Position numbers and translations under genes: made by a program
Notes under the pieces: generated by a model
What the model was told of the DNA's origin: nothing
Databases searched by the model: none
Seen by the model: the letters and a program-made list of their open reading frames with translations, nothing else
Part shown: one piece after another, positions 18,140 through 48,059 of the stretch
Position numbering within the stretch: position 1 is the first letter of the stretch
Layout of the letters: each line of letters opens with the position of its first letter
Assembly (NCBI GenBank): GCA_934162125.1
Contig: CAKPHU010000005.1
Coordinates: 64,528 to 128,527 of the forward strand
Length of the DNA stretch: 64,000 nt
DNA from: an uncultured Bacilli bacterium
GTDB taxonomy: Bacteria; Bacillota_I; Bacilli_A; RF39; UBA660
Direction of reading: 5' to 3'

Positions 18140-18436
18140 TTAGTTATTGAATGTTTGAGCAACGTCTTTATCAGTATCGATATTTCTATTAGTAACTTCA
18201 GCAATATGATTTACCATTGCGATTACTTTATCATAGAATACTTGATAATTCTTTCTTAGCTCTTCATAACGTCCATTTGAAACGTCTGCTCCAGAACTTT
18301 GCCAATTTTCTCCAAATAATTCTGTCATGCTTCTATCAACGTTATTAAATATTTCTAACATATCGTTAGCATCTGATTGAATAGTTGTTGCTAAAGAATA
18401 TGCTTGTTCATAATCTTTCTCTTCAAATTCGTTCAT
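18140..18436 (-). CDS. WXG100/ESAT-6-like small helical protein (paralog of 44274-44570)
   Basis: 98 aa, helix-turn-helix sized, with ENWQSSGA near the centre. Alignable to the 44274 ORF. Confidence 0.55.
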   Translation of the reverse strand: MNEFEEKDYEQAYSLATTIQSDANDMLEIFNNVDRSMTELFGENWQSSGADVSNGRYEELRKNYQVFYDKVIAMVNHIAEVTNRNIDTDKDVAQTFNN

Positions 18437-18446
18437 ACTTTACCTC

Positions 18447-18749
18447 CTAATCAAATAAATTTTGAGCACGAACTGTTGATTCTTGTTCATTTTCATCAAA
18501 TCTTTGTGCACCACTCATTATTTTTTCACCAAATTCGTTTAATAATTCTTTAAACTCATTTAAGTTTTGAACTTGATTATCTACTTGAGTACTGAATTCA
18601 GTAGCAGCTGGTCCTCTCCAAATTTCCATTAAACTTTCTTTATGAGATTTTAAATCAGTTATTTTGCCATTAAATTCTTCTGCATCTCTTACTGTTGAAT
18701 TTCCATTGTCATACATATCATTAGTATTAACTTTTAAACCGTTTTGCAT
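18447..18749 (-). CDS. WXG100 family protein (EsxA-like; paralog of 44570-44878)
   Basis: 100 aa with the canonical central motif EIWRGPAATEF (W-x-G...A..F). Confidence 0.7.
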   Translation of the reverse strand: MQNGLKVNTNDMYDNGNSTVRDAEEFNGKITDLKSHKESLMEIWRGPAATEFSTQVDNQVQNLNEFKELLNEFGEKIMSGAQRFDENEQESTVRAQNLFD

Positions 18750-18825
18750 AATTAACCTCCTATCATTAATTACATTTTAGCATAGTATTTTTTTTAATTA
18801 AAGTTTTTTAACGTTTGTTTACATA

Positions 18826-19746
18826 TTATTCGCCAACAAAATAAGTTTTCCATAAGTATTGAGCATCTTTAACTGTTGGAGCGTTATTAATTAAGTCTTT
18901 TACTAGTAGAGCTTGTGAATTTGTATAGCCAGATCCTTCAGTCATTTCAGCAATGGCAAAGTCCATTTGAACATCTACATTACTTGGATCAAGACCTTTT
19001 TCCTCTGCAAATTTAAATAGATTTGCTTTTCTTTCATCGTTCCATTTAAAGATTCCGTATCCATTACCATTTTCAGCAATTGTGGAAGTAACATTAGTAC
19101 CATCTTTAGCTTCATTGATAATACCTTTGATAGCTTGATCTGTGAAACCATTTTCTCCGAACTTATTAGTAATATTAGATTCAACTGTACTATCAATTGT
19201 AGTGTCTGTTCCAATTGGAGTTGTAACTTCTCCTGGATCGTCAGCATCATCTTCTGGTTCTGGTGTTGTATCTGGTTCAGAATAATCAGAGCCTCCAGCG
19301 TCTCCTCCAGAGTAACTTCCTCCAGATGATCCACCATAGCTACCACCTGAAGAACCACTATAACCACCGCTTGAGCTATCATAATAACCATCTGATGTAG
19401 CAGTACTATCAGCATTTACACCATCTGTTGCTTCTGTCTCTAGAGCAGTTTCTGCTTCGCTGATATAATCTTCGAATTTAAATACCATTGAACTTTGTAA
19501 GTCTTCTTGGGTATTCATTACATCAGTTATAAAACTAGATGCAGCTTTTACTTTTTGACCAGCCATAGAAATGTTATTTGCTATAGCTTGAGCAGCACCT
19601 CTGAAATTAAATTCAGCACTATCGATTGCATTAGCAGCTACAGAAGTAGCTAGTTCATCAAATTGACTAGAAAGGCTTTCTAATCCAGTTACTGCCTCTG
19701 TTAATTTTTGTGAATCCGTTTTAAAAATATTTCCCAACAATGACAT
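18826..19746 (-). CDS. Modular effector-like protein: WXG/LXG-type helical N-domain, Gly/Ser-rich linker, and a C-terminal phage-tail-lysozyme-like (Phage_lysozyme2-type) cell-wall hydrolase domain
   Basis: 306 aa. Helical N-terminus, then (GGYSGSSGGSYGGSSGG) low complexity, then a C-terminus GIFKWNDERKANLFKFAEEKG...MDFAIAEMTEGSGY resembling the GLFQWN-type lysozyme domain. Confidence 0.55.
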   Translation of the reverse strand: MSLLGNIFKTDSQKLTEAVTGLESLSSQFDELATSVAANAIDSAEFNFRGAAQAIANNISMAGQKVKAASSFITDVMNTQEDLQSSMVFKFEDYISEAETALETEATDGVNADSTATSDGYYDSSSGGYSGSSGGSYGGSSGGSYSGGDAGGSDYSEPDTTPEPEDDADDPGEVTTPIGTDTTIDSTVESNITNKFGENGFTDQAIKGIINEAKDGTNVTSTIAENGNGYGIFKWNDERKANLFKFAEEKGLDPSNVDVQMDFAIAEMTEGSGYTNSQALLVKDLINNAPTVKDAQYLWKTYFVGE

Positions 19747-19768
19747 AATACTTTCCCCTTTCTATCTT

Positions 19769-20071
19769 TTAAACACCATCTATATTTGTTCCAACTTCAT
19801 TATCCGTTTTAGCATATTCGGTAGCCGTATCTTTTAAATAATTTGAGAAGTTAGTTAAATCAGCAACATCTTCTAGAATTCCACCAATATCTTCTTGCCA
19901 TGCTTCTACTAGGCTATCAGCTGCTTTTCCTGATAATAGATTATTGTTATAAATATTACTTAACTCTGTATTTGCATTTTGAAGCATAGTATTTAATTTT
20001 TCTTTACTAGATTCAATTGTACTTGCTCCCTTATCAAAAAGAGAATAATCTTTTGCTTCGAAATCAGTCAT
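19769..20071 (-). CDS. LXG/WXG-like small helical protein. Homologous to the N-terminal domain of the 46199-47008 protein.
   Basis: 100 aa. NLLSGKAADSLVEAWQ aligns with VFMGPVAEECVNLI of 46199-47008, an (L/F)xG motif. Confidence 0.5.
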   Translation of the reverse strand: MTDFEAKDYSLFDKGASTIESSKEKLNTMLQNANTELSNIYNNNLLSGKAADSLVEAWQEDIGGILEDVADLTNFSNYLKDTATEYAKTDNEVGTNIDGV

Positions 20072-20081
20072 CTTATCACCT

Positions 20082-20369
20082 CTATATTCTTTTGGCAGCT
20101 AATGCTTTATCTGCTTCCTCGATTTTATCTGCTAGTTTGTTTAAATAAATAGACATAGCTTCGATTTTCAAAATTTTATCTTTTAATTGTGCATCTTTTT
20201 CAGTGTAAGAATTACTAAATGCTTCTTTGGCGATTCCATTCCAATCTGATGTATCGGCTGTTAATTCTGTTTTTCCTGCGTCTAAGTCAGCTTTAGCTTG
20301 GCGTGCTAGAGTATCTAATTGTTTTGCAGCTTGTCTTACTTCGTCAAAATGACATTCTATAACTGACAT
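20082..20369 (-). CDS. WXG100 family protein (paralog of 44966-45253)
   Basis: 95 aa. SDWNGIAKEAF canonical WxG motif. Good SD (GTGAGGG) upstream. First gene of cassette A. Confidence 0.7.
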   Translation of the reverse strand: MSVIECHFDEVRQAAKQLDTLARQAKADLDAGKTELTADTSDWNGIAKEAFSNSYTEKDAQLKDKILKIEAMSIYLNKLADKIEEADKALAAKRI

Positions 20370-20483
20370 AATGTGCCCTCACTTTCTACTATCTTATAAT
20401 TTATTATAACATATTTTTTTATTTTTAATTATTTTTTAAATATAAAGGGCAATAATTTACAGTTTAATTGATTTTTTTTAAAA

Positions 20484-20514
20484 TAAAAAAAGGCTCTTTA
20501 AAAGCCTTTTTTGT
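20484..20514 (-). terminator. Rho-independent terminator (bidirectional hairpin AAAGGCT-ctttaaa-AGCCTTT with flanking A and T runs)
   Basis: Perfect 7-bp stem at 20489-20510 overlapping the stop of the 20498-21478 gene. The U-run is on the minus strand. It separates that gene from cassette A. Confidence 0.5.
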
Positions 20515-21478
20515 GTTTAATTAACATTTTTGGGTTCTTTAAGGGCTTTTCTTGAAAGCCTAAAACTTCTTCTGATTCATGTTTTATTTGGGAATCTTTA
20601 CCAGAAATAAAGTCTAAGTAATCAACACCTGTATATGGTGTGGTAAAGGAGAAATCAGAAGTTTCTTCATAGTAGAGACCATTGCGATAAGAAAGGGCAA
20701 AACCATCAAAATAATTTTTCATATTTTGTTCAGTTAAAGGCATATAACCCTTTTTTAGAATTGTGCTGGCAACATTTAAGCGGTCTTCTGTCATGGTCAT
20801 AAAACATCCTGGTAGACAGCCAGAAATTCCCATGACTCCTAATCTGTTTAAAGAATTTGTTTTTTCCACAAAAAACTGTCGATAAGTACAATCTACTAAG
20901 TATTTTGAACCTTTAATTTTGACAATATTGAAGAAATGGAAGCCATCTCCACCTAAAAGATTAGCTTTTTCATCAAAGCCAGGGTGGATAACTACTTTTT
21001 TGCATGGAATAGAATGCTGTTTACAAATTTTTTCCACATAATTTGCGGAAACATAACAATAATTAGTAAAAGATAAATCTTCAATTCCTTTACGATTAAA
21101 GATTGGATGATAACTACGAGTAGCTAAGTATCCTCTTGTCTCATGAACGAGCCATGATAATATTTCTTCGGCAGAAGCTGATGATGATGGAGCTGATTTT
21201 TCTTTATCTTTTTGATATTCTGGGAGAGATTCAATTATAAATCCTTCAGGAAGAGCCATTTCGCAATCAGTAAGACGTTCTCTAAGAAGAACATAAGCTA
21301 TATTTATCTTACCATCCATGTAATAGTCAGGTCCTACATCTTTTATAAATTGATAAGCCTTATCTAATTCTTTTTTTGCTTCATCTAAGCTAGGTGCAGT
21401 TTTAATGTTTTTAGCATAAGTTGACATTTTATCTAGATAAGACATTTCTTCTTGATATGTTTTTTGAAATATATACAT
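20498..21478 (-). CDS. Transglutaminase-like superfamily protein (papain-like Cys-His-Asp fold)
   Basis: 326 aa. NYCYVSANYVEKICKQHSIPCKKV matches the transglutaminase-core consensus (G-x-C-x-x-[FY]-[AS]...R..GIPAR). A downstream His (GFHFFNIV) and Asp (LVDCTY) sit at appropriate spacing. Confidence 0.55.
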   Translation of the reverse strand: MYIFQKTYQEEMSYLDKMSTYAKNIKTAPSLDEAKKELDKAYQFIKDVGPDYYMDGKINIAYVLLRERLTDCEMALPEGFIIESLPEYQKDKEKSAPSSSASAEEILSWLVHETRGYLATRSYHPIFNRKGIEDLSFTNYCYVSANYVEKICKQHSIPCKKVVIHPGFDEKANLLGGDGFHFFNIVKIKGSKYLVDCTYRQFFVEKTNSLNRLGVMGISGCLPGCFMTMTEDRLNVASTILKKGYMPLTEQNMKNYFDGFALSYRNGLYYEETSDFSFTTPYTGVDYLDFISGKDSQIKHESEEVLGFQEKPLKNPKMLIKHKKGF

Positions 21479-21572
21479 AATAAATCTCCCTTGGACTTGT
21501 ATTATAACATAAATCTTTATTTATTACTTAATTTTATGTAAAAGAAAAAAAAGAATACTAAAAGATAGTATT

Positions 21573-23306
21573 CTATGAATTTGAGTTTTCATTCAAATAT
21601 AAGTTTTGGTAAACTTTGGATTTTTTTAAGAGTTCGGCATGAGTACCATAATTTTCTAACTTTCCTTTGTCTATAATATTGATAATGTCAGCATCAACTA
21701 TTGTAGAAAGACGATGAGCAACAATTATTACAGTATGATCTTTTACTAAATTATCAATAGTCTTTTTAATATATTCTTGTGATTCATTGTCAAGGGCTGA
21801 TGTAGCTTCATCAAATAAAATGATTTTAGTATTTAACATCAGCGTTCTAGCAATCGCAAGACGTTGTTTTTGACCACCTGATAAGTTTACGCCACCTTCA
21901 CCAATAATAGTGTCATATTGTTTTGGTAAAGACATGATGTATTTATCGATGTAGGCTTTCTTACAATATTTTCTTACTTCTTTTAAAGTTACATTTGGTT
22001 TTACTAATTTAAAGTTATCAATTATAGATAAATTAAATAAGAATGGTGCTTGTCTAATAATAGAAATGTTTTTTCTTAGATCTTTTTCTGTTAAATCTTT
22101 GATATCTATATCATCAATTAAAATTTGACCTGTTGTAGAATCAAAATAACGTAATAATAAGTTAAAGATTGTTGATTTACCATTACCACTCTTACCTACA
22201 ATAGCAACTTTTTTATGAGGTTCAATTTTTAGAGAAAGGCCTTTTAAAGTGAAGTCTTCATCTTCTGAGTATTTAAACTTAACATCTTTAAATTCAATAT
22301 TTCCTTTTATTGACTTAACTTTCTTAGTACCAAATTTCTCATCTTCATATAATTCATTATTAATAATTTCACCAATTCTCTTTAAAGAAACAGTTACTTT
22401 ATTATAACTTACACCAAAATCAGAGATACTTTCTACAACTTCATCAATACGCCAGATATACATTTCTAGCATAATGAATGTGGCATAAGTTATTTCGCCT
22501 TGGATAAAGAAATATCCAGCAGTTAGCAAAATAATAAATTGTAGCGAAAAGTAAACTAAATTATTTAATCCGTAATACCAGACTTCATAATTTCTAATTT
22601 TTTTGTTTTTATTAAACAAATCTGTTAATTGTTTTAAAATATTTTCTTCTATATTATTTTTGATTCCTAGAGATTTTATCTCTCTGATACCTGTAATATT
22701 TTCAGTTGCAACTTTAACGTAGTTGTCAGATTCTTTTTTAATAGACTCTTGTGTCTTCTTTATTTTTGGGAAGAACTTAGTAGAAATAAAGCCCATGGCT
22801 ACTCCGAAGATAACTATTTCTAAGCCTAGAACCCATGAGATAGAAAATGCTAAAACAGTGATAGCAACTACTACTAGTGCTTTACACAATAATTTAATTA
22901 GTTTAGCAAGTAGTTCCATTACACGATCTGGATCTGTGTATAGACGATTGATGAATTCACCTACTCCGATATCTTCAAAAGCTTTAGCTGGTAGATTATC
23001 AATTTTATGATATAAATCCATACTAACATTTTTCATAAATTTTAATTCCAAACTGTTATATAGTTTATCTTTTGGTATTTGAAGGATTGCATATAAAATA
23101 ATGTATGTTCCTTCCCATGAAGCTAGATAAATAAAGAATTGTTTTAAATCTTTTAAAATTAAGAATTCTAGAGCTTTACCCCAGAAGTAAGCTGCGAATA
23201 AAACAGGTAAATAAGTTAGAACCACTAAGAACATATAAAGAAATAATTTTAGTTTGTCTTCTTTTATGTAGTGCCATAGAATTTTAAAACTATCCATTTT
23301 TTTCAT
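21573..23306 (-). CDS. ABC transporter, fused permease/ATP-binding (ABCB-type exporter)
   Basis: 6-TM N-domain plus Walker A GKSGNGKST, signature LSGGQKQR and Walker B ILFDEATSALD. Start placed at MKKMDSF (23306), which has an AAGAGGTGA SD. The ORF-track start is 23342. Confidence 0.85.
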   Translation of the reverse strand: MKKMDSFKILWHYIKEDKLKLFLYMFLVVLTYLPVLFAAYFWGKALEFLILKDLKQFFIYLASWEGTYIILYAILQIPKDKLYNSLELKFMKNVSMDLYHKIDNLPAKAFEDIGVGEFINRLYTDPDRVMELLAKLIKLLCKALVVVAITVLAFSISWVLGLEIVIFGVAMGFISTKFFPKIKKTQESIKKESDNYVKVATENITGIREIKSLGIKNNIEENILKQLTDLFNKNKKIRNYEVWYYGLNNLVYFSLQFIILLTAGYFFIQGEITYATFIMLEMYIWRIDEVVESISDFGVSYNKVTVSLKRIGEIINNELYEDEKFGTKKVKSIKGNIEFKDVKFKYSEDEDFTLKGLSLKIEPHKKVAIVGKSGNGKSTIFNLLLRYFDSTTGQILIDDIDIKDLTEKDLRKNISIIRQAPFLFNLSIIDNFKLVKPNVTLKEVRKYCKKAYIDKYIMSLPKQYDTIIGEGGVNLSGGQKQRLAIARTLMLNTKIILFDEATSALDNESQEYIKKTIDNLVKDHTVIIVAHRLSTIVDADIINIIDKGKLENYGTHAELLKKSKVYQNLYLNENSNS

Positions 23307-23332
23307 ATTATTCACCTCTTTTTTCAAAATAA

Positions 23333-23358
23333 AAGAGATCACATAATAGTGACCTCTT
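23333..23358 (-). promoter_or_regulatory. Hairpin (AAGAGATCAC-ataata-GTGACCTCTT) between the small upstream ORF and the ABC exporter start. Possible attenuator.
   Basis: 9/10-bp inverted repeat followed on the minus strand by U-rich UUAUUUUG, located between the leader ORF stop (23371) and the ABC gene SD. Confidence 0.3.
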
Positions 23359-23370
23359 AATAAGTATTTG

Positions 23371-23481
23371 TTATACGTTAAATCGAGTGAAAAACATCAA
23401 ACGTTTTCCCCTCTGGTCATTATTACTTTTTGCCAATATTATTCTGTTTAAATTTTGTTTGTTTGAACTTATCATTCTCAT
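23371..23481 (-). CDS. Putative 36-aa leader peptide / small ORF (MRMISSNKQNLNRIILAKSNNDQRGKRLMFFTRFNV)
   Basis: ATG preceded by AAAGGAGAG (9-nt spacer). Lies downstream of a near-consensus sigma-A promoter and immediately upstream of the hairpin and ABC exporter. Not in the ORF track because it is short. Confidence 0.3.
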   Translation of the reverse strand: MRMISSNKQNLNRIILAKSNNDQRGKRLMFFTRFNV

Positions 23482-23514
23482 GTTTTTCACTCTCCTTTCC
23501 TCAAATTCGTCTTT

Positions 23515-23559
23515 AGCATATCATACTATTTAATTGGTGTCAACCTTTTTTTGTTGACA
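23515..23559 (-). promoter_or_regulatory. Sigma-A-type promoter (TTGACA, 17 nt spacer, TATGCT) reading into the leader ORF and ABC exporter. The -35 sits inside the palindrome TGTCAAC-N8-GTTGACA.
   Basis: Minus strand reads TTGACAccaattaaatagtatgaTATGCT. The palindrome arms are at 23538-23544 and 23553-23559. It may also act as a terminator or operator after the M23 peptidase gene. Confidence 0.4.
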
Positions 23560-23582
23560 TAAAAAAGATAAGGTTTGTAGCC

Positions 23583-26444: not shown

Positions 26445-28664
26445 TTAACGTTTATAAGTACTGGCATTTACATTATTTATAATACTTATCTTATTACCAT
26501 CAGAAGTAATTAAAATGTTACCAGTCGATGAATCACTTTGTCGATAAGTAGTAATTCCATAACTGTTTAGTTTAGCTTTATTTTCTGCACTTGGATATTT
26601 AGGTGCATAATAATTTGGAACTATTACATATTTTGGCTTAGCAGTACTTAAGAATGTACTAGAAATGTAACCGTTTCCATGATGTGGATATTTTAAAACA
26701 TCTATCTTTAGGCTTATTCCTAGTGATGATGCATTACTTTGAAGAGCATCAACGCTTAACTGACTACCAGCATCTCCAGTAAACATAAAGGTATTATTTT
26801 TATATTTAAGAATGAAGATGAAGGAATTTTCATTTTTGTTGCTACCAATTTTATTAGGAGCTAAGAAGTATAAAGTCATGTCGCCAACTACAACCTTCTT
26901 TGGTGGTTTAATAATTTTTGGTGTTTTCTTACTACTTCTTAATGTATCTACAATGTGTTCTTGATCGAATGATGTACAAGTTCCATTCTTAACACAATTG
27001 AAGATGTCATCTGGATAATATATTTCACTTACTTGGAAGTTATTAATTATATCTGCTTGAGCTGCAATGTGGTCGTTGTCTAAGTGAGAACCAATCATTA
27101 AATCTATTTTCTTAACGCCTAATTGATTTAAGTATGGTATTACTTTTGTACGACAATCCCATCTTCCACTATCAATAAGAATAGTTTTACTACTTGTTCT
27201 AATTAGGATTGCATCATCGTAGTGACCACTTGCGATAAAGTGAATTTCAATACCTTTTAGAGCGATGCCTGTATTGCCACCTGTGTTACCTCCGGTATTG
27301 CCACCTGTGTTTCCACCAGTATTTCCTCCAGTGTTGCCTCCGGTATTTCCGCCGGTATTTCCGCCGGTGTTACCTCCAGTATTTCCTCCAGTGTTACCAC
27401 CTGTGTTACCTCCAGTATTTCCTCCAGTGTTGCCTCCGGTATTTCCGCCTGTATTGCCTCCAGTGTTACCGCCTGTATTTCCACCGGTATTTCCTCCAGT
27501 GTTGCCTCCGGTATTTCCGCCTGTGTTACCTCCAGTATTTCCTCCGGATGTACCATTTTTGTTTTCTAATTTACAAGTTATTGTTTTAACATTTCCAGCT
27601 TTATCATATATTTTTACTTCTGCTATGGCCATTTCTTTACCAATAACTATTTTTGAAACATTGTATGCATTGCCATTTATTACATATCTGTCAATACCAA
27701 CATTGTCTTTGGCATTAATTGTGATAATTGATTGACCATTTTTATAATATCCACTACAACTACCAGTTGGTGGTGTTTTATCAATTGTTCCAACAGAGAT
27801 AGTTTGTTCAATACAGTTGTTTTTAGCGTCATAAATGTAGAACTTATATTCTCCGTTTTTTGTTACTTTATATTGAATTGTAGTATTGGTACTCGTTTGA
27901 CCATTTGGTAATTTTATGTAGTTGTAATATGGACTATCAGTTTTAAATTCAATAACTTTGTAGCCATCAGAATAATTGTTACTTGCAAGACCTAAGCTAT
28001 AATTCATTTCATATACTATGACCGTTCGAACAGCTTTGGCTTCTTTACCACTACTATTTTTAGCAGTATAGGTTACTTGATAAGTTCCAACATTGTTAGT
28101 ATTTACGTTACTATCTACTTTAATACTACTAGTAAGATCACCATCTTTACCATCCTTAGCCGTAGCACCAGGATCTGTAAATGCTGTTCCTTTTAGGACA
28201 TGGAAGGTTTCTCCACCTTTTATTTTAATCATGAACTCATCATAAATAATAACGTATCTTGTTAACTGAGAAGTTATACCATTATAATTGAAGTCATAGG
28301 TTACTTGATATTTTCCTTTAGTAGTAGTATCTACTTCTCCTGTAATGGTTACATACTTTCTTAAGTCTTCTTTTGAACCAGTTAGAGAAAAACCTGGTTC
28401 TTCGTAAGTGTCACCAATATATAATTTGGTTACTTTATCACCATTTAAACTAAAACGTACTGTTTCTGTTCCAGTAGTGATAACCTCTTCTGCTTTGTTT
28501 TCACTTTGTTTGTTGGGTGTGAATAAAAATAAGACTAAGGCAAAAACAAAAACACCGACTGTAATACCGCAAATTATATTTGTTATTTTCTGAGCTTGGG
28601 TTTTCTTTTTTTTCTTTTTCTTTTTGTTTTTATTTAAATTTTCAAAACCAAAATTCATATCCAT
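26445..28664 (-). CDS. Membrane-anchored surface protein: poly-Lys N-terminus, one TM helix, Ig-like (DUF5011/Big-type) domains, a (GGNT)x~23 linker, and a C-terminal ComEC-like MBL-fold metallo-hydrolase domain
   Basis: 739 aa. TM segment [25 protein letters not shown]-domain motifs [11 protein letters not shown]...ILIDSG and [11 protein letters not shown] later in the sequence. Confidence 0.7.
27266..27545 (-). repeat. In-frame 12-nt tandem repeat, about 23 units, encoding (Gly-Gly-Asn-Thr)n inside the surface protein gene. Units differ mainly at synonymous positions.
   Basis: Directly visible as ctgtattgccac / ctgtgttacctc / cggtattgccac and so on. The two opposite-frame ORFs in the track (PVLPP.. 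and EATLEEI..) are artefacts of this repeat. Confidence 0.9.
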
Positions 28665-34802: not shown

Positions 34803-34815
34803 GTTTTACTCCTAA

Positions 34816-37865: not shown

Positions 37866-37875
37866 AAGAAGCTCC

Positions 37876-39612
37876 TTATTTGTTATATTTTATTTCTGAC
37901 TCATATAAATGTTTATATTCGTTGCATGTTTTTAACAATTCACTATGAGTTCCTGAATCTATAACTTTTCCGTTAGATATATAGTATATTTTATCACAGT
38001 TTACAATAGTAGAGAAACGATGCGCAATTATTAGAATTGTGTATTCTCTTTTTAAATTATTTAAAGCTGTGGCTATTTTACTTTGAGTTTCATTATCTAG
38101 TGCGCTTGTAGCTTCATCAAAAAGAATAATTTCTGTTTTTTGAATAAAGGCTCTGGCAATTGCTAAACGTTGTCTTTCACCACCAGATAAAGTAACTCCT
38201 CCTTCACCAATTACCGTGTCATATTTATTAGGTAGAGTATTAACAAAATCATCAAGACAAGCAATTTTACAAGCTTCAATCATTTCCTTGTCAGTTAAAT
38301 CATCTTTGACAAGCTTTAAGTTATCTCTAATACTCATGTTAAAGATATAGGGATTTTGACTAATAATGGTAATGCTACCTCTGATAGAGTCTTCATCTAA
38401 TGTATTAATGTTGTATCCGTCTATTTTTATTTCTCCATCGTCTATGTCATACATTTTGCATAGTAAATTGAAGATGGTAGTTTTACCAGATCCACTTTTC
38501 CCAACAAATCCAACTGTTTCATTGGCTTTAACATTAAAAGATAATTTGTTTAAGACTGTTCTATCTTTATTATAACCAAAAACTACATCTTTAAATTCAA
38601 AGTCACCATTAACTTTTTCTAAATGTTTAGAACCAAATTGTTCTTTCTTGAATTCTTTACTTTCAAGTAGAGAGAAAACTCTATTACAAGAAAGATTGAA
38701 GTCTTTTAATTCTTCTAATAAATTAGCTACTGCATACATTAAGGTTCCAAGTATATTATTTCTGTAAGAATATAATACTATGGCTAGTGCTATTGTTACG
38801 CTGTGATTTATTAATAAGTAAATCAAGATAATAACAAGTAGAACTTCAAATATTGAACCAACTACTGTTATGGCAAAATTATAGTTCATATGAGTATTAC
38901 GCATGGCATAGACTTTTTCTGATACCTCATTAATACTTTTTTCTAGTGTGTTTAAAAAAGATGCAGAAGCATTAAGCATTTTAATATCTCTTACACCACG
39001 AACAAGCTCGGCAGTTAATCCCATATTTTCTTCTCTCTTATGGCGTAGTTCTTTATCCTTTTCATTTACTGCTCTTACTTTGACAATATTTAAGTAAGCA
39101 ATACAACTTGCAGCAAAAATGTAAAAGAAGAAGACCATTTTATTGATTATGAAAACAGCGGCAAAAATACCAATATTAGTCAAAATACTTGTGACATTGC
39201 CCATCCCAATAGTAAAAATATGAGATAGTTCTTTACAGTCTTCATTTAATCTTTCAATAAATACTCCACTAGAATTATTGTCTAGTTCTTTAACTTTTAT
39301 TTTTAAGATTTCTTTACTTACGGCTAGTTGTAGTTTTTTAAAGACACCTCTAAAAAATATTTGAGTATTCCTTTTAATGACTAAAGTTTTTATACCATTT
39401 AAAATATCGAAGCCAAAAACAATTAGAGTTGCTATTATTAGGCCTTTATAATCTTCATTTGTTAAGGCAGTTAATTGCCTTGCTGTAAACATTGGATATA
39501 TTACACTAACAAATATAAATAAAAGTGTAATGATAGTAAAAGCATATAAATTTTTTCTATATTCTTTTCCATAATCATAAACTTTTTTTAAATTTTTAAT
39601 GGTTGTTTTCAT
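37876..39612 (-). CDS. ABC transporter, fused permease/ATP-binding (ABCB-type exporter)
   Basis: 578 aa. Walker A GKSGSGKTT, LSGGERQRLAIARA, ILFDEATSALD. Confidence 0.85.
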   Translation of the reverse strand: MKTTIKNLKKVYDYGKEYRKNLYAFTIITLLFIFVSVIYPMFTARQLTALTNEDYKGLIIATLIVFGFDILNGIKTLVIKRNTQIFFRGVFKKLQLAVSKEILKIKVKELDNNSSGVFIERLNEDCKELSHIFTIGMGNVTSILTNIGIFAAVFIINKMVFFFYIFAASCIAYLNIVKVRAVNEKDKELRHKREENMGLTAELVRGVRDIKMLNASASFLNTLEKSINEVSEKVYAMRNTHMNYNFAITVVGSIFEVLLVIILIYLLINHSVTIALAIVLYSYRNNILGTLMYAVANLLEELKDFNLSCNRVFSLLESKEFKKEQFGSKHLEKVNGDFEFKDVVFGYNKDRTVLNKLSFNVKANETVGFVGKSGSGKTTIFNLLCKMYDIDDGEIKIDGYNINTLDEDSIRGSITIISQNPYIFNMSIRDNLKLVKDDLTDKEMIEACKIACLDDFVNTLPNKYDTVIGEGGVTLSGGERQRLAIARAFIQKTEIILFDEATSALDNETQSKIATALNNLKREYTILIIAHRFSTIVNCDKIYYISNGKVIDSGTHSELLKTCNEYKHLYESEIKYNK

Positions 39613-40320: not shown

Positions 40321-40332
40321 TGTGACTTTATT

Positions 40333-40869: not shown

Positions 40870-40937
40870 ATTTTCACTTCCTATTCTACAATGTAAAGTC
40901 TATCAAATATATTAAGATGTGTCAAACAAATATACTT

Positions 40938-41483: not shown

Positions 41484-41501
41484 ATTGATTCTCTTTTCTT
41501 A

Positions 41502-41984: not shown

Positions 41985-41997
41985 ACTACTCTCCTGC

Positions 41998-42594
41998 TTA
42001 TTTTTTGATATCTATATATGGTTTGTATATTTCTGCGTACTTTTCTAAGCATTCTTTGACATCAAACCAGTAGACATTAGTTAATATTCCATCACTTGGA
42101 TCTATTTCTGTTCTTTCAAGGACACCACCTAAGGCTTTAAGTGTTTTATCAGATCCTAAATTATTAACGTCACAGTCTAACATTACACGTTTTAGTCCTA
42201 ATTTTTGAGCTTCAACTAGACCTAAATACAAATTTATTTTATTATAGCCTTTTCTTCTTTCTGTTGGTCTGATCGCATAGCCAATATGGCCACCAAATTG
42301 TTGCATACTTAAAGATAAGTTCCATCTAACATTAATCATGCCAACTACTTTATTGTCATTTTTCCTAATAAGAAGAAAGGTTTTGGCTGGACATCTATTT
42401 ATTTTTTTTGCATACTCTTCATTTTCTGTATTTAAACATCTTTCAAGAGCTTTTTCAAAAGACATATCAGTCAACACCTTATCTAAGGAACCAGAACCAT
42501 TTATGTCTGAATTGTATTCTACAAACTCGTTAAAATATTCTAATATGTCTTTTTTTCTTTCAAGTGATGGTCTTTCCAAATAAAACTTTTCCAT
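41998..42594 (-). CDS. GNAT family N-acetyltransferase (RimJ/RimL-like)
   Basis: 198 aa. RRKGYNKINLYLGL motif and a RimL-like length. Confidence 0.65.
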   Translation of the reverse strand: MEKFYLERPSLERKKDILEYFNEFVEYNSDINGSGSLDKVLTDMSFEKALERCLNTENEEYAKKINRCPAKTFLLIRKNDNKVVGMINVRWNLSLSMQQFGGHIGYAIRPTERRKGYNKINLYLGLVEAQKLGLKRVMLDCDVNNLGSDKTLKALGGVLERTEIDPSDGILTNVYWFDVKECLEKYAEIYKPYIDIKK

Positions 42595-42610
42595 ATATAT
42601 TCTCCTTTGA

Positions 42611-43027
42611 TTATTTTTTAATCCACAAATACATACCTGTTATCTTATCAGGTTTATATTTAAATCCGGCTTTTTGATAAAACCCTTCATTTCCTGCTGT
42701 TGGAGTTAATTCAATTTGCATTTTTTCTCCTGGTTTTACATTTGATTCAATCATTCCTTTTAATTTATTAACAATCATCAAGCCATAGCCTTTTCCTTGA
42801 TATTCTGGTCTTACACAAATGTCTGATAGACAACAAACTATACTGAAGTCACCCACAACACGACCTATTCCTACTGCTTTACCATCTACCATAACTTTTA
42901 CCATGTACATGGTGTTTTTTAGAGCTTTCTCAACTTGTTCTTTTGAATAACTTTTAAATCCTACAGACTCTATTACGTCTAAGAATTCTTCAATACTAAT
43001 ATTTTCTTCTAATATTACTTCACTCAT
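42611..43027 (-). CDS. GNAT family N-acetyltransferase
   Basis: 138 aa. QGKGYGLMIV motif. Confidence 0.7.
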   Translation of the reverse strand: MSEVILEENISIEEFLDVIESVGFKSYSKEQVEKALKNTMYMVKVMVDGKAVGIGRVVGDFSIVCCLSDICVRPEYQGKGYGLMIVNKLKGMIESNVKPGEKMQIELTPTAGNEGFYQKAGFKYKPDKITGMYLWIKK

Positions 43028-43078
43028 TTTCTTACTCCTATTTTTAACAACTTGTTTTAACTTGCTTTTATGATAATT

Positions 43079-44152
43079 TTATTTTAATATTTCAGTATTT
43101 ATAAAAATTCTTTTGTTATCATAGTCGATAGTTGCTTCGGCATCATAAGGTAGAAGACATCTTGGGACAGAATGTCCAAAATTTACGTTATATAAAATTG
43201 GCGTCTCTAAGTCTGAAAAAACCTTTTTATATACTTCTTTATATTCTTCATAATATTTTTCATCTATAGGTTTACCAACGATAAGTCCTTGAACTAAATT
43301 GAAAATATTTCTCTTTTTTAATTCCAAAAGCATTTTTTCAAGTTCCTTAGGAGTGGCAGCTACTTCACTAGTTTCTAAGAATAATATTTTTTCTTTCCAT
43401 TCATCTTCTGTTGGGAATATTTGATATTTTTCATACACTGATGCTTGATCTGCAAATCTTGTTCCCATAAATGATTCATATATACTTTCTACGCATCCTC
43501 CATATAGTTTTCCAGTTGCTGTTCCTTGACCATTTAAAGTTTCAAAACCATGTATTTCTTGATGAGATTCTCTTGGTATTCCAATCTCTTCTGGTCCATA
43601 ACTTTTTCTATCACTATACCAAACTGGGCTTGATTTTATTTCATAAGATTTTCCACCTGTAAAAAATTTTTCAAATTGGTCTTTAGTGTAAGGCAACATT
43701 TCATTATCTAACTCTGCTATATCAACTAATAAGCATGGTCCATAAAATGTAGATAGACCTATTTTATTTAACATTAAATGATTATTTGTAGTGTCAGAAA
43801 AGCCGGTGAAAATTTTAGGGTTGTTTTTAACAGCTTCAATAAACTCTGGATCATCCATTAGATAAGGTATTGTTTTATAAGTATCAATGCCACCTATTGC
43901 GGTTATGATAGCTTTTATACTAGGATCCATAAAAGCATCCTTTAAATCACTTGCTCTAGCTTCTGGGTGTTCTTCAATGTACTTCATATCTTTTAAAGCA
44001 TTAGGCATTATTACTGGTTCTAATCCATATTCTTTTAGTCTATCTAAAGCAATAGACAATTCATGTTTACAAAATGGCATTCCTAAAAGTCCTCTTGATA
44101 GACTAACGATAGCTATTTTGTCTCCCTTTTTCAATCTTTGTGGTTTTAACAT
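43079..44152 (-). CDS. S66 family serine peptidase (LD-carboxypeptidase / MccF-like)
   Basis: 357 aa. N-terminal LKKGDKIAIVSLS and the TGFSDTT Ser-nucleophile motif. Its size fits MccF-like rather than short LdcA. Confidence 0.7.
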   Translation of the reverse strand: MLKPQRLKKGDKIAIVSLSRGLLGMPFCKHELSIALDRLKEYGLEPVIMPNALKDMKYIEEHPEARASDLKDAFMDPSIKAIITAIGGIDTYKTIPYLMDDPEFIEAVKNNPKIFTGFSDTTNNHLMLNKIGLSTFYGPCLLVDIAELDNEMLPYTKDQFEKFFTGGKSYEIKSSPVWYSDRKSYGPEEIGIPRESHQEIHGFETLNGQGTATGKLYGGCVESIYESFMGTRFADQASVYEKYQIFPTEDEWKEKILFLETSEVAATPKELEKMLLELKKRNIFNLVQGLIVGKPIDEKYYEEYKEVYKKVFSDLETPILYNVNFGHSVPRCLLPYDAEATIDYDNKRIFINTEILK

Positions 44153-44273
44153 ATTATCACCTCTTATTTAGATTATATCATACGCTTAACTAATATCTAT
44201 AGAATAGCTTTTTGACTGTTGCATAAAAAAAAGGCTCAATATGCAATTAAGTCTCTTTCAACGTTATTCTTTT

Positions 44274-44570
44274 TTAGTTATCTATTTCAACAGCATTAGT
44301 AGCAGCAGCATCAGCAGCTTCATAAGTATTAGCAGCTTCATTGATTACTTTATTCATTTCTACTACTTGTTCATAGAATGCAGAGTATTTTTCATGAAAT
44401 TGTCTCATATAATCTGATTCAATATCACGAGCACCAATACTATTCCAGTGATCTGAAAATAAACCGTTCATAACTATATCTTCATTATCAAATACTTCTT
44501 TGATTTGATTTGCTAAATTTAAAATTTCATTTGCACTACTACGTGCTTGTTCATAATTATCTATTTGCAT
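44274..44570 (-). CDS. WXG100/ESAT-6-like small helical protein (paralog of 18140-18436)
   Basis: 98 aa with DHWNSIGA. Its SD is embedded in the end of the upstream gene. Last gene of cassette B. Confidence 0.55.
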   Translation of the reverse strand: MQIDNYEQARSSANEILNLANQIKEVFDNEDIVMNGLFSDHWNSIGARDIESDYMRQFHEKYSAFYEQVVEMNKVINEAANTYEAADAAATNAVEIDN

Positions 44571-44878
44571 TAAAAACCAATCCTTCCTGCACTACTTGCT
44601 ACGTCATTTTCAGCCTCTTCTAAGATGTTAGCTGCCCTTCCTAAACCTTCACCTAAATTAGCAACTTGCTCATTAAATGTATTTAACAATACAGCAAGAT
44701 CTTCATATGCAGCCATAAATTTTTCTCTACCACCACCAGATTTCCAGTTAGAGCCTAATTCATCAACTTTTGCTTTTAATGATGATAATTTTTCACGAAA
44801 TTCTTCTGAGTTTTCAATTGTTTCTCTACTGTTGCGGTTCATACCACCAAAATCAACTTGTAAACCATTTGTATTCAT
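44570..44878 (-). CDS. WXG100-like protein (paralog of 18447-18749)
   Basis: SNWKSGGG central motif. Start placed at MNTNGLQ (44878), preceded by an AGGAGG SD. The ORF-track start at 44905 appears to be a TTG. Confidence 0.6.
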   Translation of the reverse strand: MNTNGLQVDFGGMNRNSRETIENSEEFREKLSSLKAKVDELGSNWKSGGGREKFMAAYEDLAVLLNTFNEQVANLGEGLGRAANILEEAENDVASSAGRIGF

Positions 44879-44965
44879 TAATAAATACCTCCTACTTATT
44901 TTCAATATATCGTTTAATTGTTTACTTGTATATATTTTATATTAAAATGTTACATAATTTTACAT

Positions 44966-45253
44966 CTAAATACTTAAACTTGCTAACTGATTTTCTAAAT
45001 CTTGGATACTTTTAGCAGATGATTTGATAAATTCACCAACTTCACTCATTTTTTCTGCTTTTGCAGTAGCTAGTTCAACTTGACTTGTACATTGAGCAGT
45101 AAAATTATTTTTAGCTTTTCCACTCCAAGCCGAAAGATCGCTTGTAACATTAGTATCATAATTTTGAATAGCTGTTTTTATATTGTTGGCAGCTGAACAT
45201 AACTTTTCTCCTGCTGCTATTACTTCAGCAAAATCACATACATATTTGGCCAT
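44966..45253 (-). CDS. WXG100 family protein (paralog of 20082-20369)
   Basis: 95 aa. SAWSGKAKNNF canonical WxG motif. AAAGGAG SD. Confidence 0.7.
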   Translation of the reverse strand: MAKYVCDFAEVIAAGEKLCSAANNIKTAIQNYDTNVTSDLSAWSGKAKNNFTAQCTSQVELATAKAEKMSEVGEFIKSSAKSIQDLENQLASLSI

Positions 45254-45267
45254 TGATAAACTCCTTT

Positions 45268-46188
45268 CTATATTTCGACTGTTTCATTTCCTGAACTTTG
45301 ATTATCAGTTGAGCTAGCTAAATTAGTTAATATAGTACTTTCATTTACTATTTTGTTAGCATTAAGGTCAAATTGTCCATTATTTGTAACAGTATATTTA
45401 GTCATATCAATATTTATATTATTTTCATTTTCACTATTCCAATTTTCATTAACGATAAAACTAACATTAGATTTAGCATTGTCAGTAGTAGGCTTTTCAA
45501 AACTGATACCAACAATACACTTAACTTCTTCACCATTATTGTTTTTGAAAATAATTTCATCACCAACTGTTCCGATTGATTCATTACATAAAACTACATA
45601 GTGATCGTCAATCATGGCGTAACCATTGCCATTATAGGTAACTTTATTTATATAGTCGTTCTTTAGCGAATCATCTAATTTATCTAAATTAATACCAACA
45701 TGATTTACTTCTTCAATTTTATCTGTAATAGCATTTTCATCTTTTTCTTTGTCTTCTGGCTCTGTGTTTGTTTCATCTAATCCCGAAATAGCACTAGCTA
45801 TTCCAGCTGCTATGCCTCCTGAAATTGTACTTGATGATCCTCCAGAGTAATAACTTCCTGAATAGCCTCCGCTTGATGAACTACTACTTGAATATCCACT
45901 ACTAGCAGTTTTATTAGTTTCTGTTTTGGCTAGCGTTAATGACTTTTGAAGGGAAGTGTGAGCACTAACTACATTATCAGCATAAATAGATGTATTTTTG
46001 AATTTTGTAACACAGGCTTCAACATTTGCGATCATTTGAGCTTTAACTGATGAGAAGTCAAAACCATCTTCACAACTTGTATCATAACCACTTATCGAAT
46101 CTACAACACTTGAGATTTGATTTGCTAAAGAATTTATTGTATTAGCTCCTGATATGACAGGATCACAATCTAACATAAATACACTCAT
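45268..46188 (-). CDS. Modular effector-like protein: WXG/LXG-type helical N-domain, Ser/Gly-rich linker, and a C-terminal beta-rich domain of unknown function
   Basis: 306 aa. Same architecture as 18826-19746, but the C-terminal domain (NGYAMIDDHYVVLCNESIGTVGDEIIFKNNNGEEVKCIVG...) has no motif I recognise. Confidence 0.5.
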   Translation of the reverse strand: MSVFMLDCDPVISGANTINSLANQISSVVDSISGYDTSCEDGFDFSSVKAQMIANVEACVTKFKNTSIYADNVVSAHTSLQKSLTLAKTETNKTASSGYSSSSSSSGGYSGSYYSGGSSSTISGGIAAGIASAISGLDETNTEPEDKEKDENAITDKIEEVNHVGINLDKLDDSLKNDYINKVTYNGNGYAMIDDHYVVLCNESIGTVGDEIIFKNNNGEEVKCIVGISFEKPTTDNAKSNVSFIVNENWNSENENNINIDMTKYTVTNNGQFDLNANKIVNESTILTNLASSTDNQSSGNETVEI

Positions 46189-46198
46189 ATATTATCTC

Positions 46199-47008
46199 CT
46201 ATTTTGGGTCCCATTGATCAAGACCATATTGTTCAACAATACTAATTAAATTTTCACTATAGGTTTGACTTGTTGCATAACCGCATTGTTTAACAGCGAC
46301 GCAAGCCTCCTTATAATTAGTAGCCTCTAAAACAGGCTTGTATCTGTCTTTAGTTAACAGTTCAGCATGATCAATAATAGAATCATTTACTGAATCATAA
46401 TCTCTGAAATCAGCACGTGTTTGATATCTAGTACCATCAGCATTTTGTTCTCCAGTTAAACAATTTACTCTTTTGCCAGTCCAACTACTACCAGCTTTAA
46501 TACCAAAAATATTGTTACCAATTCTTGATCTACCCCAACCTGTTTCTAGTATTGCTTGAGCAAGTGTTAAAGAAGGTAAAACTCCATATTTATTATAGGT
46601 TTCTATGGCACCAGCTTTGATTTCATTTACAAAGTCTAATCTGTAACCTGATAAGTTACCTGGATTTTTATAATCACTGTTGATTGCTGTTTGACTAACT
46701 CCATTAAGTTTTAATTGAACTGCTTGATTTGCTTCACTATCAGCATTTTTGTATGTTGCGGAAGCTGTAGTAAGAAAGTCTGCTATAGTTTTGAAATTTT
46801 CACCAATAGTATTTAGAGATGTATCCAATTCATTAATTAAATTAACACATTCTTCTGCTACTGGTCCCATGAAAACACTTTCGTTGCTAAGTTTGGTTAA
46901 GGAATCATTTAGGCTGGTATTACATTCAGTTACTTTGGAATTTGTTAAAGTAGTAGTAGATATTGCATTATTGAAAATGCCATAATCTGTAATTGAAACT
47001 TTATCCAT
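46199..47008 (-). CDS. LXG/WXG-like helical N-domain fused to a GH73 N-acetylglucosaminidase (FlgJ/mannosyl-glycoprotein endo-beta-N-acetylglucosaminidase-type) domain
   Basis: 269 aa. The N-terminus aligns with the 19769-20071 protein. The C-terminus carries LPSLTLAQAILETGWGRS, the GH73 consensus around the catalytic Glu. Confidence 0.7.
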   Translation of the reverse strand: MDKVSITDYGIFNNAISTTTLTNSKVTECNTSLNDSLTKLSNESVFMGPVAEECVNLINELDTSLNTIGENFKTIADFLTTASATYKNADSEANQAVQLKLNGVSQTAINSDYKNPGNLSGYRLDFVNEIKAGAIETYNKYGVLPSLTLAQAILETGWGRSRIGNNIFGIKAGSSWTGKRVNCLTGEQNADGTRYQTRADFRDYDSVNDSIIDHAELLTKDRYKPVLEATNYKEACVAVKQCGYATSQTYSENLISIVEQYGLDQWDPK

Positions 47009-47019
47009 TCTATCACTCC

Positions 47020-47916
47020 TTATTTATTTCCTTCATATCTTAAGTAACCATCCCATCCACTGCTATAAAATGGAACAACGTTTATTTCTTTACCAGTTGA
47101 ATCACCATCTTGGCCGTCTCTATCACCATGGGCTCCAATCATTTGTCCATCGCCTATATACATTTCGGTATGAGAATTTTCATCTAATAAAACGTCACCT
47201 GGTAATAGGTCTTCTGCTCTTGGTGTACCTGGATACCATGTAAATCCACATTGAGTAAATGATCTTTTCATATTTCCTGTGAATCCTGCTCCGGCTTCTT
47301 TAACCGGGATACCCGCATTTTCATAAGCATTGATGACAAAAGATGAACAGTCATAATTTGGATTACCATTTCTTGTCTTTTGTGAGTAACCGTGTGTGTC
47401 GTCATTGGCAATGTCAAAGGCCCAATTGATAGCATTTTGAATATATGGAGAACTCGATCTTATTGCATAAGAATTAGAACCAGATGTGCTTGTGGTACTA
47501 TCTCCATTGATACTAACAGTGGCTAATTTAACAGAGGCAGCACTCTGTAGTTGACTTTCAATTTGAGTTTTTAAAGTTTCCATTTCCGACTCGTAGCTAT
47601 TCATTTCAGAAAGATAACTACGGGCTGAACTTGTATTATTAGCAGCGTATGCAGTATTGTAGTTACTCTTAGCAATATTATATTTTGGTTTTAGTTCTTT
47701 ATATTTGGCATATAAATCACAGGCAGATGCAAAAGCTGTGAACTGAGTTTTTAAGCTACTTGCATATTCTGAACTAAAATCATTTGCTTTAGATGAAAAG
47801 TTATTATATGAGTTACCTTTCCATGATGAAGCAAGCTCATTTACGCAATTAGAATAATTTGTTATAGCTGAAGTAATACTACTTAAATCAGAATTAACTT
47901 GACTTCCACTTACCAT
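47020..47916 (-). CDS. WXG100-domain N-terminus fused to an NlpC/P60 cysteine peptidase domain
   Basis: N-terminal LASSWKGNSYNNF (W-x-G). C-terminal NYDCSSFVINAY...NSHTEMYIG (NlpC/P60 Cys and His). Start placed at the second ATG (47916), preceded by GGAGG. The ORF-track start is 47928. Confidence 0.7.
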   Translation of the reverse strand: MVSGSQVNSDLSSITSAITNYSNCVNELASSWKGNSYNNFSSKANDFSSEYASSLKTQFTAFASACDLYAKYKELKPKYNIAKSNYNTAYAANNTSSARSYLSEMNSYESEMETLKTQIESQLQSAASVKLATVSINGDSTTSTSGSNSYAIRSSSPYIQNAINWAFDIANDDTHGYSQKTRNGNPNYDCSSFVINAYENAGIPVKEAGAGFTGNMKRSFTQCGFTWYPGTPRAEDLLPGDVLLDENSHTEMYIGDGQMIGAHGDRDGQDGDSTGKEINVVPFYSSGWDGYLRYEGNK

Positions 47917-48059
47917 ATTTACCTCCATTTATTTTATCTTAATATTATTTTATCATTATAAATAAAGGAAAAACAATTTTATTTGTGAAAAGACAAGATG
48001 TTTACATTTTTTAGGACATAGTGCTTTCTCTATTATAAATTATTTTTGTTTTAAATATG

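Follow-up and report, generated by a model that had tools for sequence, protein, structure and literature searches.

The pairing of a helical targeting domain with small partner proteins is a general principle already known in type VII secretion. In mycobacteria, enzymes fused to PE/PPE domains, such as LipY, carry a short helical hairpin of the Esx/PE/PPE superfamily with a YxxxD/E motif and are secreted with a partner, and in Staphylococcus aureus the peptidoglycan hydrolase EssH carries a Sec signal and is not known to be a type VII secretion system (T7SS) substrate. The known T7SS cargo of Bacillota consists mostly of LXG toxins with immunity proteins, and substrate loci remote from essC are already known. 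Both YxxxD and the FxxxD of the small partner Lap1 are established export signals, the latter being needed for LXG toxin export (PMC9600955), NlpC/P60 domains are found among predicted type VII cargo (PMC13444075), and variants of the system have been published (T7SSc-j; PMC11217815). Cassettes of peptidoglycan hydrolases fused to WXG100-type domains are not described in the reviews and papers that could be searched, where only EssH, as a helper, and unexplained CHAP neighbours in T7SS loci appear. Here, we analyse two such gene cassettes, A (20369→18140) and B (47928→44274), in a 64,000-nucleotide stretch of DNA from an uncultured Bacilli bacterium (contig CAKPHU010000005.1, hereafter the window), and predict that both are probably T7SS substrate operons exporting peptidoglycan hydrolases. 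Type VII secretion, which is likely the organising principle of the locus, was not named in a preliminary description of this DNA, whose observations were partly confirmed and whose interpretation is partly supported.

The two cassettes comprise 11 open reading frames (ORFs), all on the minus strand and either overlapping or spaced by 10-87 bp, with the coordinates and domains given in the preliminary description: a lysozyme domain in A3, NlpC/P60 in B1, glycoside hydrolase family 73 (GH73) in B2 and no Pfam domain in B3. Six family profiles (hidden Markov models, HMMs) were used, three for WXG100-like N-terminal hairpins (T1, T2 and T3) and three for WXG100 subfamilies of small proteins (W1, W2 and W3). 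They were built from members in other species only, with the window proteins excluded, and each of the 11 proteins falls into one family without ambiguity (E 1e-13 to 1e-49). A six-frame scan found no further T or W family member elsewhere in the window. The gene order is W1, T2 (free-standing), T3::phage-tail lysozyme, W2, W3 in cassette A and T1::NlpC/P60, T2::GH73, T3::B3C, W1, W2, W3 in cassette B, where B3C is an unnamed β-domain. The features are as follows (aa, amino acids).

A1, 20082..20369, minus strand: 95-aa WXG100 protein, subfamily W1, divergent copy (PF06013 E 1.4e-9; W1 HMM E 1.8e-14).
A2, 19769..20071, minus strand: 100-aa free-standing T2-type hairpin (T2 HMM E 9.5e-14; WXG100 E 1.2e-5).
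A3, 18826..19746, minus strand: T3-type hairpin (~19471-19746; residues 7-92, T3 HMM E 5.2e-14), Ser/Gly/Tyr-rich linker (~19180-19470) and Phage_lysozyme2 domain (~18838-19179; residues 190-303, PF18013 E 2.8e-14).
A4, 18447..18749, minus strand: 100-aa WXG100 protein, subfamily W2, with an IWRG motif (PF06013 E 4.2e-9; W2 HMM E 5e-33).
A5, 18140..18436, minus strand: 98-aa WXG100-like protein, subfamily W3 (W3 HMM E 4.4e-36; TIGR03930 E 1.3e-4).
Terminator-like hairpin, 20486..20512, minus strand: a stem of 12 bp and then a T-run, as identified by consensus scan alone.
B1, 47020..47928, minus strand: T1-type N-domain (~47509-47928, with SWKG; T1 HMM E 6.8e-49) and NlpC/P60 / ELLD endopeptidase (~47023-47439; ELLD E 3.1e-13, 50.4 bits; NLPC_P60 E 7.2e-6, 26.4 bits against a threshold of 23), the motifs for the Cys-His-His residues (YDCSSF, SHTEMY, GAHG) being present in the sequence.
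B2, 46199..47008, minus strand: T2-type N-domain (~46700-47008, with YKNAD; T2 HMM E 1.1e-33) and GH73 glucosaminidase (~46223-46609; PF01832 E 1.4e-33, 116.6 bits against a threshold of 30.2), with the motifs AILETGWG and GYATSQTY in the sequence.
B3, 45268..46188, minus strand: T3-type hairpin (~45910-46188; T3 HMM E 9.2e-38), Ser/Gly/Tyr linker (~45739-45909) and β-domain B3C (~45358-45738).
B4, 44966..45253, minus strand: 95-aa WXG100 protein, subfamily W1, canonical copy (W1 HMM E 3.4e-42; PF06013 E 1.7e-6).
B5, 44570..44878, minus strand: 102-aa WXG100 protein, subfamily W2, starting MNTNG as in the public gene call (PF06013 E 3.9e-11; W2 HMM E 1.6e-23).
B6, 44274..44570, minus strand: 98-aa WXG100-like protein, subfamily W3 (W3 HMM E 4.2e-25; PF06013 E 2.7e-5).

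Export by a T7SS is probable because a WXG100-type hairpin takes the place of a secretion signal in each enzyme and small WXG100 partners are encoded alongside. No signal peptide or transmembrane segment was found in any of the 11 proteins (maximum KD19 <=1.19); the neighbouring PcsB-like M23 hydrolase has a clear signal (KD19 2.4-2.7). The six small proteins and A2, at 95-102 aa, fit the WXG100 length and match PF06013 (E 4e-11 to 3e-5) and TIGR03930 (E 2e-10 to 1e-4), with A1 (38.6), A4 (37.0), B4 (28.6) and B5 (43.5) passing the PF06013 gathering score of 27.3. The W-x-G turn takes the form SWxG in W1 (DWNG in A1, AWSG in B4), IWRG (A4) or NWKSG (B5) in W2 and SWKG in T1, while W3 has the spaced variant NWxSxG, T2 has FMG and T3 is without the motif. 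In the AlphaFold2 model of B3, the T3 domain is predicted to form a hairpin (residues 9-33/45-93), then a disordered region of Ser/Gly/Tyr (91-150) and lastly a β-domain, whose predicted local distance difference test (pLDDT) score is 80-95.

The N-terminal domains of the enzymes are, on sequence comparison, distant WXG100 relatives. T1 relatives match PF06013 at E 9e-7, and profile-profile comparison links W1 with W2 (96.7%), T2 with W3 (80%), T3 with W1 (72%) and T1 with W1 (68%). These domains had been described as LXG-like, a label that does not hold, as A3, B1, B2 and B3 have no match to LXG (PF04740) at E<=1 and carry WXG100-like hairpins of 95-140 aa instead. At about residue 86, YxxxD is found in 22 of 23 T2 members, including B2 (YKNAD) and A2 (YAKTD, at residue 86), where it matches the T7SS export arm in position and form; it is absent from T1, T3 and W1-W3. 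A2 also matches the Lap1 family TIGR04197 weakly (E 0.0055, 17.2 bits against a cut-off of 26), and DUF3958 (Lap2) gave no match. A genetic link to the secretion machinery is seen in one relative, L020, where the cassette is followed directly by a gene for a 1542-aa EssC with FHA and FtsK/SpoIIIE domains and a YukD-like gene. EssC homologues are widespread in metagenome-assembled genomes (MAGs) labelled 'Bacilli bacterium', some of them being named EssC by NCBI.

Several observations weigh against type VII export. A2 (25.9), A5 (24.5) and B6 (24.8) fall just short of the PF06013 gathering score, at E 1e-5 to 3e-5, and all the small proteins stay under the TIGR03930 cut-off of 44.85. Neither EssC nor any other T7SS core gene is encoded in the window or the adjoining 6.6 kb on the left, a segment of housekeeping genes and spo0A only, and a search for essC in the same organism found no contig common to EssC matches and cassette matches. 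The adjacency to essC is confined to L020 and is absent in a close relative, L035, which has the same flanks, as well as in L031, L032 and L036. Because no core gene lies in or just beyond the window, the presence of a T7SS in this organism, and with it the dependence of the cassettes on such a system, is inferred from relatives.

In L031, L032, L035 and L036, a module of EssC, YukD and small helical proteins stands alone among housekeeping genes, with no EsaA, EssA, EssB, LXG toxin or immunity gene within 8-10 kb. Together with that of L020 (12169-19172), these core loci look minimal: beside EssC and an 84-93-aa YukD-like protein, they encode one protein of ~150 aa and five or six helical ones of ~100 aa.

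In the proposed mechanism, each enzyme lacks a Sec signal and bears in its place an N-terminal WXG100-like helix-turn-helix (T1, T2 or T3), the enzymes so prefixed being the NlpC/P60 endopeptidase, the GH73 glucosaminidase, the phage-tail-type lysozyme and the phage-tail-lysin-like β-domain; in T3 proteins, a disordered Ser/Gly/Tyr linker connects the hairpin with the enzyme. The small WXG100 proteins W1, W2 and W3 would be co-expressed and would assemble with the hairpins into helical bundles. Such a bundle may display a composite export signal, made of WxG-type turns and the T2 YxxxD export arm, that would be read by an EssC-type ATPase encoded elsewhere in the genome. The hydrolase domain would leave with the bundle and cut peptidoglycan outside the membrane.

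The comparison set, 21 related loci gathered through the B3 family, shows how far this arrangement extends. The canonical B-type cassette recurs in the same order at these 21 loci from ~19 species, as [T1::enzyme]n-[T2::enzyme]n-T3::linker::B3C(±enzyme)-W1-W2-W3(-T2::lysozyme), and is usually flanked by a murJ/polysaccharide-flippase-like gene on one side and a convergent pair of femAB genes on the other. The N-terminal types carry the following domains.

T1 fusions: NlpC/P60 (11), GH73 (2), Peptidase_C39_2, CHAP and α/β-esterase.
T2 fusions: Phage_lysozyme2 (9), GH73 (6), CHAP, C39_2 and NAGPA.
T3 with B3C: alone (15) or with NlpC/P60 (5).
T3 without B3C: CHAP or C39_2.

Between species, T1, T2 and T3 are each joined to at least three different enzyme domains, and a single cassette can hold up to six lytic enzymes. 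An exhaustive HMMER search recovered 542 clusters of the B3/T3 family at 50% identity; among 121 representatives, the additional Pfam domains were ELLD/NlpC/P60, CHAP, Amidase_5, CW_7, LysM, YkuD, Phage_lysozyme2 and Hydrolase_2 only, with no non-wall toxin domain on T3, and one N-domain matched PPE and one WXG100. The modular diversification of a wall-targeting toolkit, as first suggested in the preliminary description, is real at the family level, because the same N-types are recombined with many enzyme domains and all the cargo is wall-related. The accompanying analogy with polymorphic toxin loci holds for the constant N-domain joined to variable C-terminal domains, and fails for the absence of immunity genes, the lack of within-species polymorphism and the wall-only cargo. 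The span 18140-47928 takes in ~24 kb of housekeeping genes that lie between cassettes A and B and are unrelated to them.

If the hydrolases are exported in this way, their target may be the producer's own wall, for autolysin-type remodelling or for opening the wall to secretion, rather than that of competitors, and we slightly favour this reading. Self-directed action is favoured because no immunity genes are present within or adjoining the window cassettes, or in most cassettes of relatives, because B3 variants within the species (~30 metagenome clusters) are 92-97% identical and of the same length, and because the cassettes occupy core positions across species. The wall-only cargo, including LysM, CW_7 and L,D-transpeptidase modules, and the wall-gene neighbours point the same way; these neighbours are, in the window, ftsEX-pcsB and the genes for an ATP-grasp ligase, LdcA and an OatA-like protein and, in relatives, murJ-like and femAB genes. 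Downstream of the window effectors, there is no extra ORF that could encode immunity, and the downstream neighbours are cytoplasmic (LdcA, ATP-grasp). Against a self target stand features that fit a weapon: the multiple lytic enzymes with domain swaps between species, the domains of phage-lysin type, and the part that known T7SSb play in antagonism.

The same export route could thus serve an antibacterial arsenal, in which T7SS lysins attack the peptidoglycan of neighbours or open the wall for other effectors and the producer is shielded by modification of its own wall, not by a cognate immunity protein. We hold this to be a possible, though doubtful, explanation. Most of the T7SSb substrates that have been characterised are antibacterial toxins, which leave the cell with small helical partners, and mycobacteria offer precedents in the T7-secreted wall glycosidase toxin EatA and in predicted NlpC/P60 T7 toxins; phage tail-lysin-type domains, for their part, cut walls from outside. 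Wall-modifying genes lie beside the cassettes, namely femAB pairs, a polysaccharide deacetylase (L026) and, in the window, the OatA-like gene and the ATP-grasp ligase. Protection against lysostaphin and zoocin A is conferred by adjacent FemABX-like immunity genes. L007 (9316-9945) and L014 (9352-9984) have an extra ~180-aa cytosolic ORF between the C39-like effector T1::Peptidase_C39_2 and T3, the sole inhibitor or immunity candidate inside any cassette. An arsenal fits poorly, however, with the lack of any immunity-like lipoprotein or transmembrane gene after a window effector, the lack of strain-level polymorphism, the conserved core-genome positions of the cassette, a cargo that includes non-lytic wall modules and an L,D-transpeptidase, and the failure to find any T3 fusion to a non-wall toxin domain.

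Taking the proposal of T7SS export to the producer's own wall one step further, we tentatively suggest that in this lineage of gut Bacilli, a compact T7SS may serve mainly for the housekeeping export of hydrolases that act on the cell's own wall; these would stem from phage tail lysins and would have exchanged Sec signals for WXG100-type hairpins, with cassette A, beside ftsEX-pcsB, as a specialised copy. At the loci examined, the compact system comprises EssC together with a few small helical proteins and one that is YukD-like, while EsaA, EssA and EssB are missing nearby. If true, type VII secretion would have a core role in wall remodelling or cell separation, not in antagonism or virulence.

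It is also conceivable, although very improbable, that the proteins are not T7SS cargo at all, the hairpins being PcsB/EnvC-like coiled coils with a regulatory or autoinhibitory role and the enzymes leaving by another route such as the adjacent ABC exporters, a holin or lysis, or the cassettes being phage or conjugative remnants. The window does lack a T7SS core gene, encodes ABC exporters at 21573-23342 and 37876-39612, has ftsEX-pcsB adjoining cassette A and carries enzymatic domains that are phage-lysin-like. These points are outweighed by WXG100 matches that are specific and family-wide, by the YxxxD motif, by the cassette joined to the essC operon in L020, by the syntenic L028 locus, which is without an ABC exporter, and by synteny and purifying selection across species. 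A phage or mobile-element origin was rejected, as no T3 relative was found in the 2.9 million viral contigs of IMG/VR and no phage or integrative and conjugative element (ICE) genes lie beside cassettes A and B.

With regard to their kinship, the two cassettes are true paralogues, sharing the same five or six helical building blocks and differing in their wall-degrading domains. The three WXG100 subfamilies held in common, as had been claimed, are borne out by three reciprocal BLASTP pairs, A1 with B4 (28% identity, E 7e-7), A4 with B5 (29%, E 2e-8) and A5 with B6 (38%, E 1e-12). A2 corresponds to the N-domain of B2 (both T2) and the N-domain of A3 to that of B3 (both T3), a homology seen only through the profiles of relatives, since direct BLASTP of A2 against B2 and of A3 against B3 gave nothing significant. 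At the DNA level, a blastn dot-plot at word sizes 11 and 7, set against 30 codon-shuffled controls, gave similarity at chance level only (best 26.5 bits; shuffle mean 27.4, maximum 31). The duplication is old, given protein identities of 28-38% and no DNA similarity above the shuffled controls. The shuffled gene order of the preliminary description proves overstated: W1 alone changes position and T1 is missing from A, the rest of the order being the same.

Cassette B is the lineage-wide canonical cassette, and cassette A is an old, genus-restricted paralogue in which T2 became a free-standing adaptor and T3 has a lysozyme instead of the β-domain. The B copies of T2, T3 and W1 are closer to the family profiles (106-133 bits, against 41-44 for the A copies), whereas W2 and W3 are more canonical in A (103 and 113 bits, against 72 and 78 in B), a complementary divergence that may reflect subfunctionalisation after duplication or an old swap of the W2-W3 pair. 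Homologues of cassette A are found in close relatives only; the A3 search returned proteins of at least 52% identity and two marginal matches, with no clear homologue outside the genus. In these relatives, the cassette keeps the same position, after ftsE-ftsX-pcsB and a 320-326-aa gene, and purifying selection acts on its genes (dN/dS 0.04-0.10 against L029).

The idea that A and B exchanged catalytic domains by recombination at repetitive Ser/Gly-linker DNA can be set aside as the least probable of the explanations considered. In its favour, the domains of A3 and B3 are each joined by a linker rich in Ser, Gly and Tyr, and C-terminal domains have clearly been exchanged in the course of evolution. 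Against it, DNA similarity between the cassettes does not rise above the shuffled controls, the linker DNA is not repetitive (no repeat is reported for the two linkers by Tandem Repeats Finder), the two linker regions have only 22 nt in common at 86%, the linker is confined to T3 proteins while T1 and T2 swap domains too, and the architecture of cassette A is unchanged in species with A3 orthologues 52-85% identical.

The T3 N-domain (B3 residues 1-93, 45910-46188, and relatives) has an invariant YDTxCEDGFDF turn and an NxEAC motif, with two invariant cysteines, which are unusual for an exported Gram-positive protein; the A3 copy has lost both. The β-domain that follows it in cassette B, B3C, has no Pfam match at E<=10, and its profile found none among PDB sequences. 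A model of the domain alone (pLDDT 87.8; predicted template modelling score, pTM, 0.83) gave weak Foldseek matches in the PDB, which were consistently double-psi β-barrel (DPBB) proteins: expansin (7wvr, E 6e-3, TM ~0.28), kiwellin, cerato-platanin, PA4485, p97-N and MltA. In BFVD, it matched four uncharacterised gut-phage proteins (E 4e-6 to 3e-5, TMq ~0.6) and, weakly, RlpA-like phage proteins (E 0.015-0.06). By tblastn, its core motif also turned up in QXG83154.1, the tail lysin of Eggerthella phage LE1-1, at the N-terminus (33% over 67 aa); this lysin continues into NlpC/P60 and so mirrors the T3::B3C::NlpC/P60 proteins of relatives. Because of the structural matches to phage proteins and the match to the LE1-1 tail-lysin N-terminus, B3C is predicted to be a phage-tail-lysin-type wall domain, with a catalytic and a binding-only role both possible. 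Residue 202 of B3 (45583-45585) is Asn in the window copy and in the closest variant checked (P0027, ~90% identical); this position is Asp in >90% of the B3 family and is among the few conserved acidic residues of the β-domain.

Around the cassettes, the window (G+C ~30%) contains ordinary chromosomal genes, including pgk, gap, clpP, whiA, uvrA, uvrB, prfB, ftsE and ftsX, the PcsB-like M23 hydrolase, ABC transporters and GNAT acetyltransferases. Upstream of cassette A, a 326-aa gene (20498-21478, minus strand) has no Pfam or NCBIfam match and is kept directly upstream of the cassette in L028 and L029. It was rejected as a member of the T/W helical families (hhalign probabilities <1%), and the terminator-like hairpin before A1 sets A1-A5 apart from it as their own transcription unit; its conserved Cys, His and Asp motifs (NYC, GFHFFN, VDCTYRQFF) give it a transglutaminase- or papain-like look. 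On the other side, a RimK-like ATP-grasp ligase (17147-18070) abuts cassette A and is kept after it in L028 and L029. Just upstream of ftsE, the ORF 26445-28664 (minus strand) contains a tandem repeat (27271-27547) with a periodicity of 12/24/36 nt, scored at up to 330 by Tandem Repeats Finder; its 739-aa product combines a metallo-β-lactamase domain with two bacterial surface Ig-like domains.

Cassette B is abutted by an LD-carboxypeptidase gene (S66; LdcA, 43079-44152), and the OatA-like acyltransferase (Acyl_transf_3+SGNH, 50529-52748) lies ~2.6 kb away. Directly upstream (48348-50377, minus strand), a prepilin-type (N_methyl) gene overlaps by 4 nt a gene for a 466-aa BspA-type leucine-rich repeat protein (LRR_5) without a signal peptide, and the two may form a pilus-associated adhesin pair. 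From 50000 to 64000, the G+C content falls to ~0.25, and this part may be an accessory region; it contains paralogous ORFs (60398-61435 and 62776-63408) with a common N-terminal sequence and, by eye, a RhuM-type look. The window belongs to a 134.5-kb metagenome scaffold (ENA ERZ28613939 scaffold_183, record positions 64506-128505). The closest genomes in public data are MAGs of human, rumen and other animal guts, which bear the labels uncultured Bacilli, Bacillales, Erysipelotrichaceae or Mollicutes. On the same scaffold, ~5-6 kb left of window position 1, lies a Spo0A gene (Response_reg + Spo0A_C; L033 15779-16555), and the organism is therefore within, or descended from, an endospore-forming lineage.

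Among the known systems, the T7SSb LXG toxin-Lap1-Lap2 modules of Streptococcus intermedius (TelC/TelD; PMC9600955, PMC10801868) resemble the cassettes in joining a helical N-terminal targeting domain to a variable C-terminal enzyme with no Sec signal, and in co-encoding small WXG100-like partners, with an export-arm motif on one component (FxxxD on Lap1, YxxxD on T2). They differ in having a ~200-aa LXG domain where the cassettes use three types of 95-140-aa WXG100-like hairpins, and two partners where the cassettes have three; the export-arm unit here is usually fused to an enzyme, the cargo is exclusively wall-related and without immunity genes, and the loci are core-genome-like, not strain-variable. 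The mycobacterial EatA-TapA1/A2-EatI system (PMC13444075) likewise exports a wall glycoside hydrolase with a helical N-domain, the GH183 arabinanase toxin EatA, through a T7SS and co-encodes small helical accessory proteins. It belongs to Actinomycetota and ESX-4, serves in competition and has a cognate lipoprotein immunity gene, whereas the cassettes have no immunity gene and place several enzymes on one partner set. The PE/PPE fusions have the same hairpin-enzyme build, and one T3 family member matches the PPE Pfam model, but phylum, secretion-system subtype and cargo class differ. EssH of S. aureus (PMC13059805) is a CHAP peptidoglycan hydrolase tied to the T7SS genetically and functionally and needed for substrates to cross the wall; it is a single gene beside esxA, and by analogy, similar help in wall crossing is a possible function for the cassettes. 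Phage tail lysins, with LE1-1 QXG83154.1 and the families Phage_lysozyme2, ELLD and Amidase_5, share their Pfam families with the C-domains of A3 and B1, whereas the cassette proteins are encoded on the chromosome, outside any phage context, and have WXG100-like hairpins and linkers placed before the enzyme. Set beside these systems, the new element is a cassette conserved across a lineage and encoding several wall hydrolases that have the build of WXG100-type substrates themselves, with three common partners and no immunity genes, and with two conserved unnamed domains now defined, the T3 hairpin and the β-domain B3C held in common with a phage tail lysin. If the proteins are exported as proposed, they would represent a new class of T7SS cargo with a short, three-type targeting domain, would bear on how T7SS substrates pass through thick walls, and would make modular targeting domains and phage-lysin-like enzymes of unculturable gut bacteria available as a tractable set.

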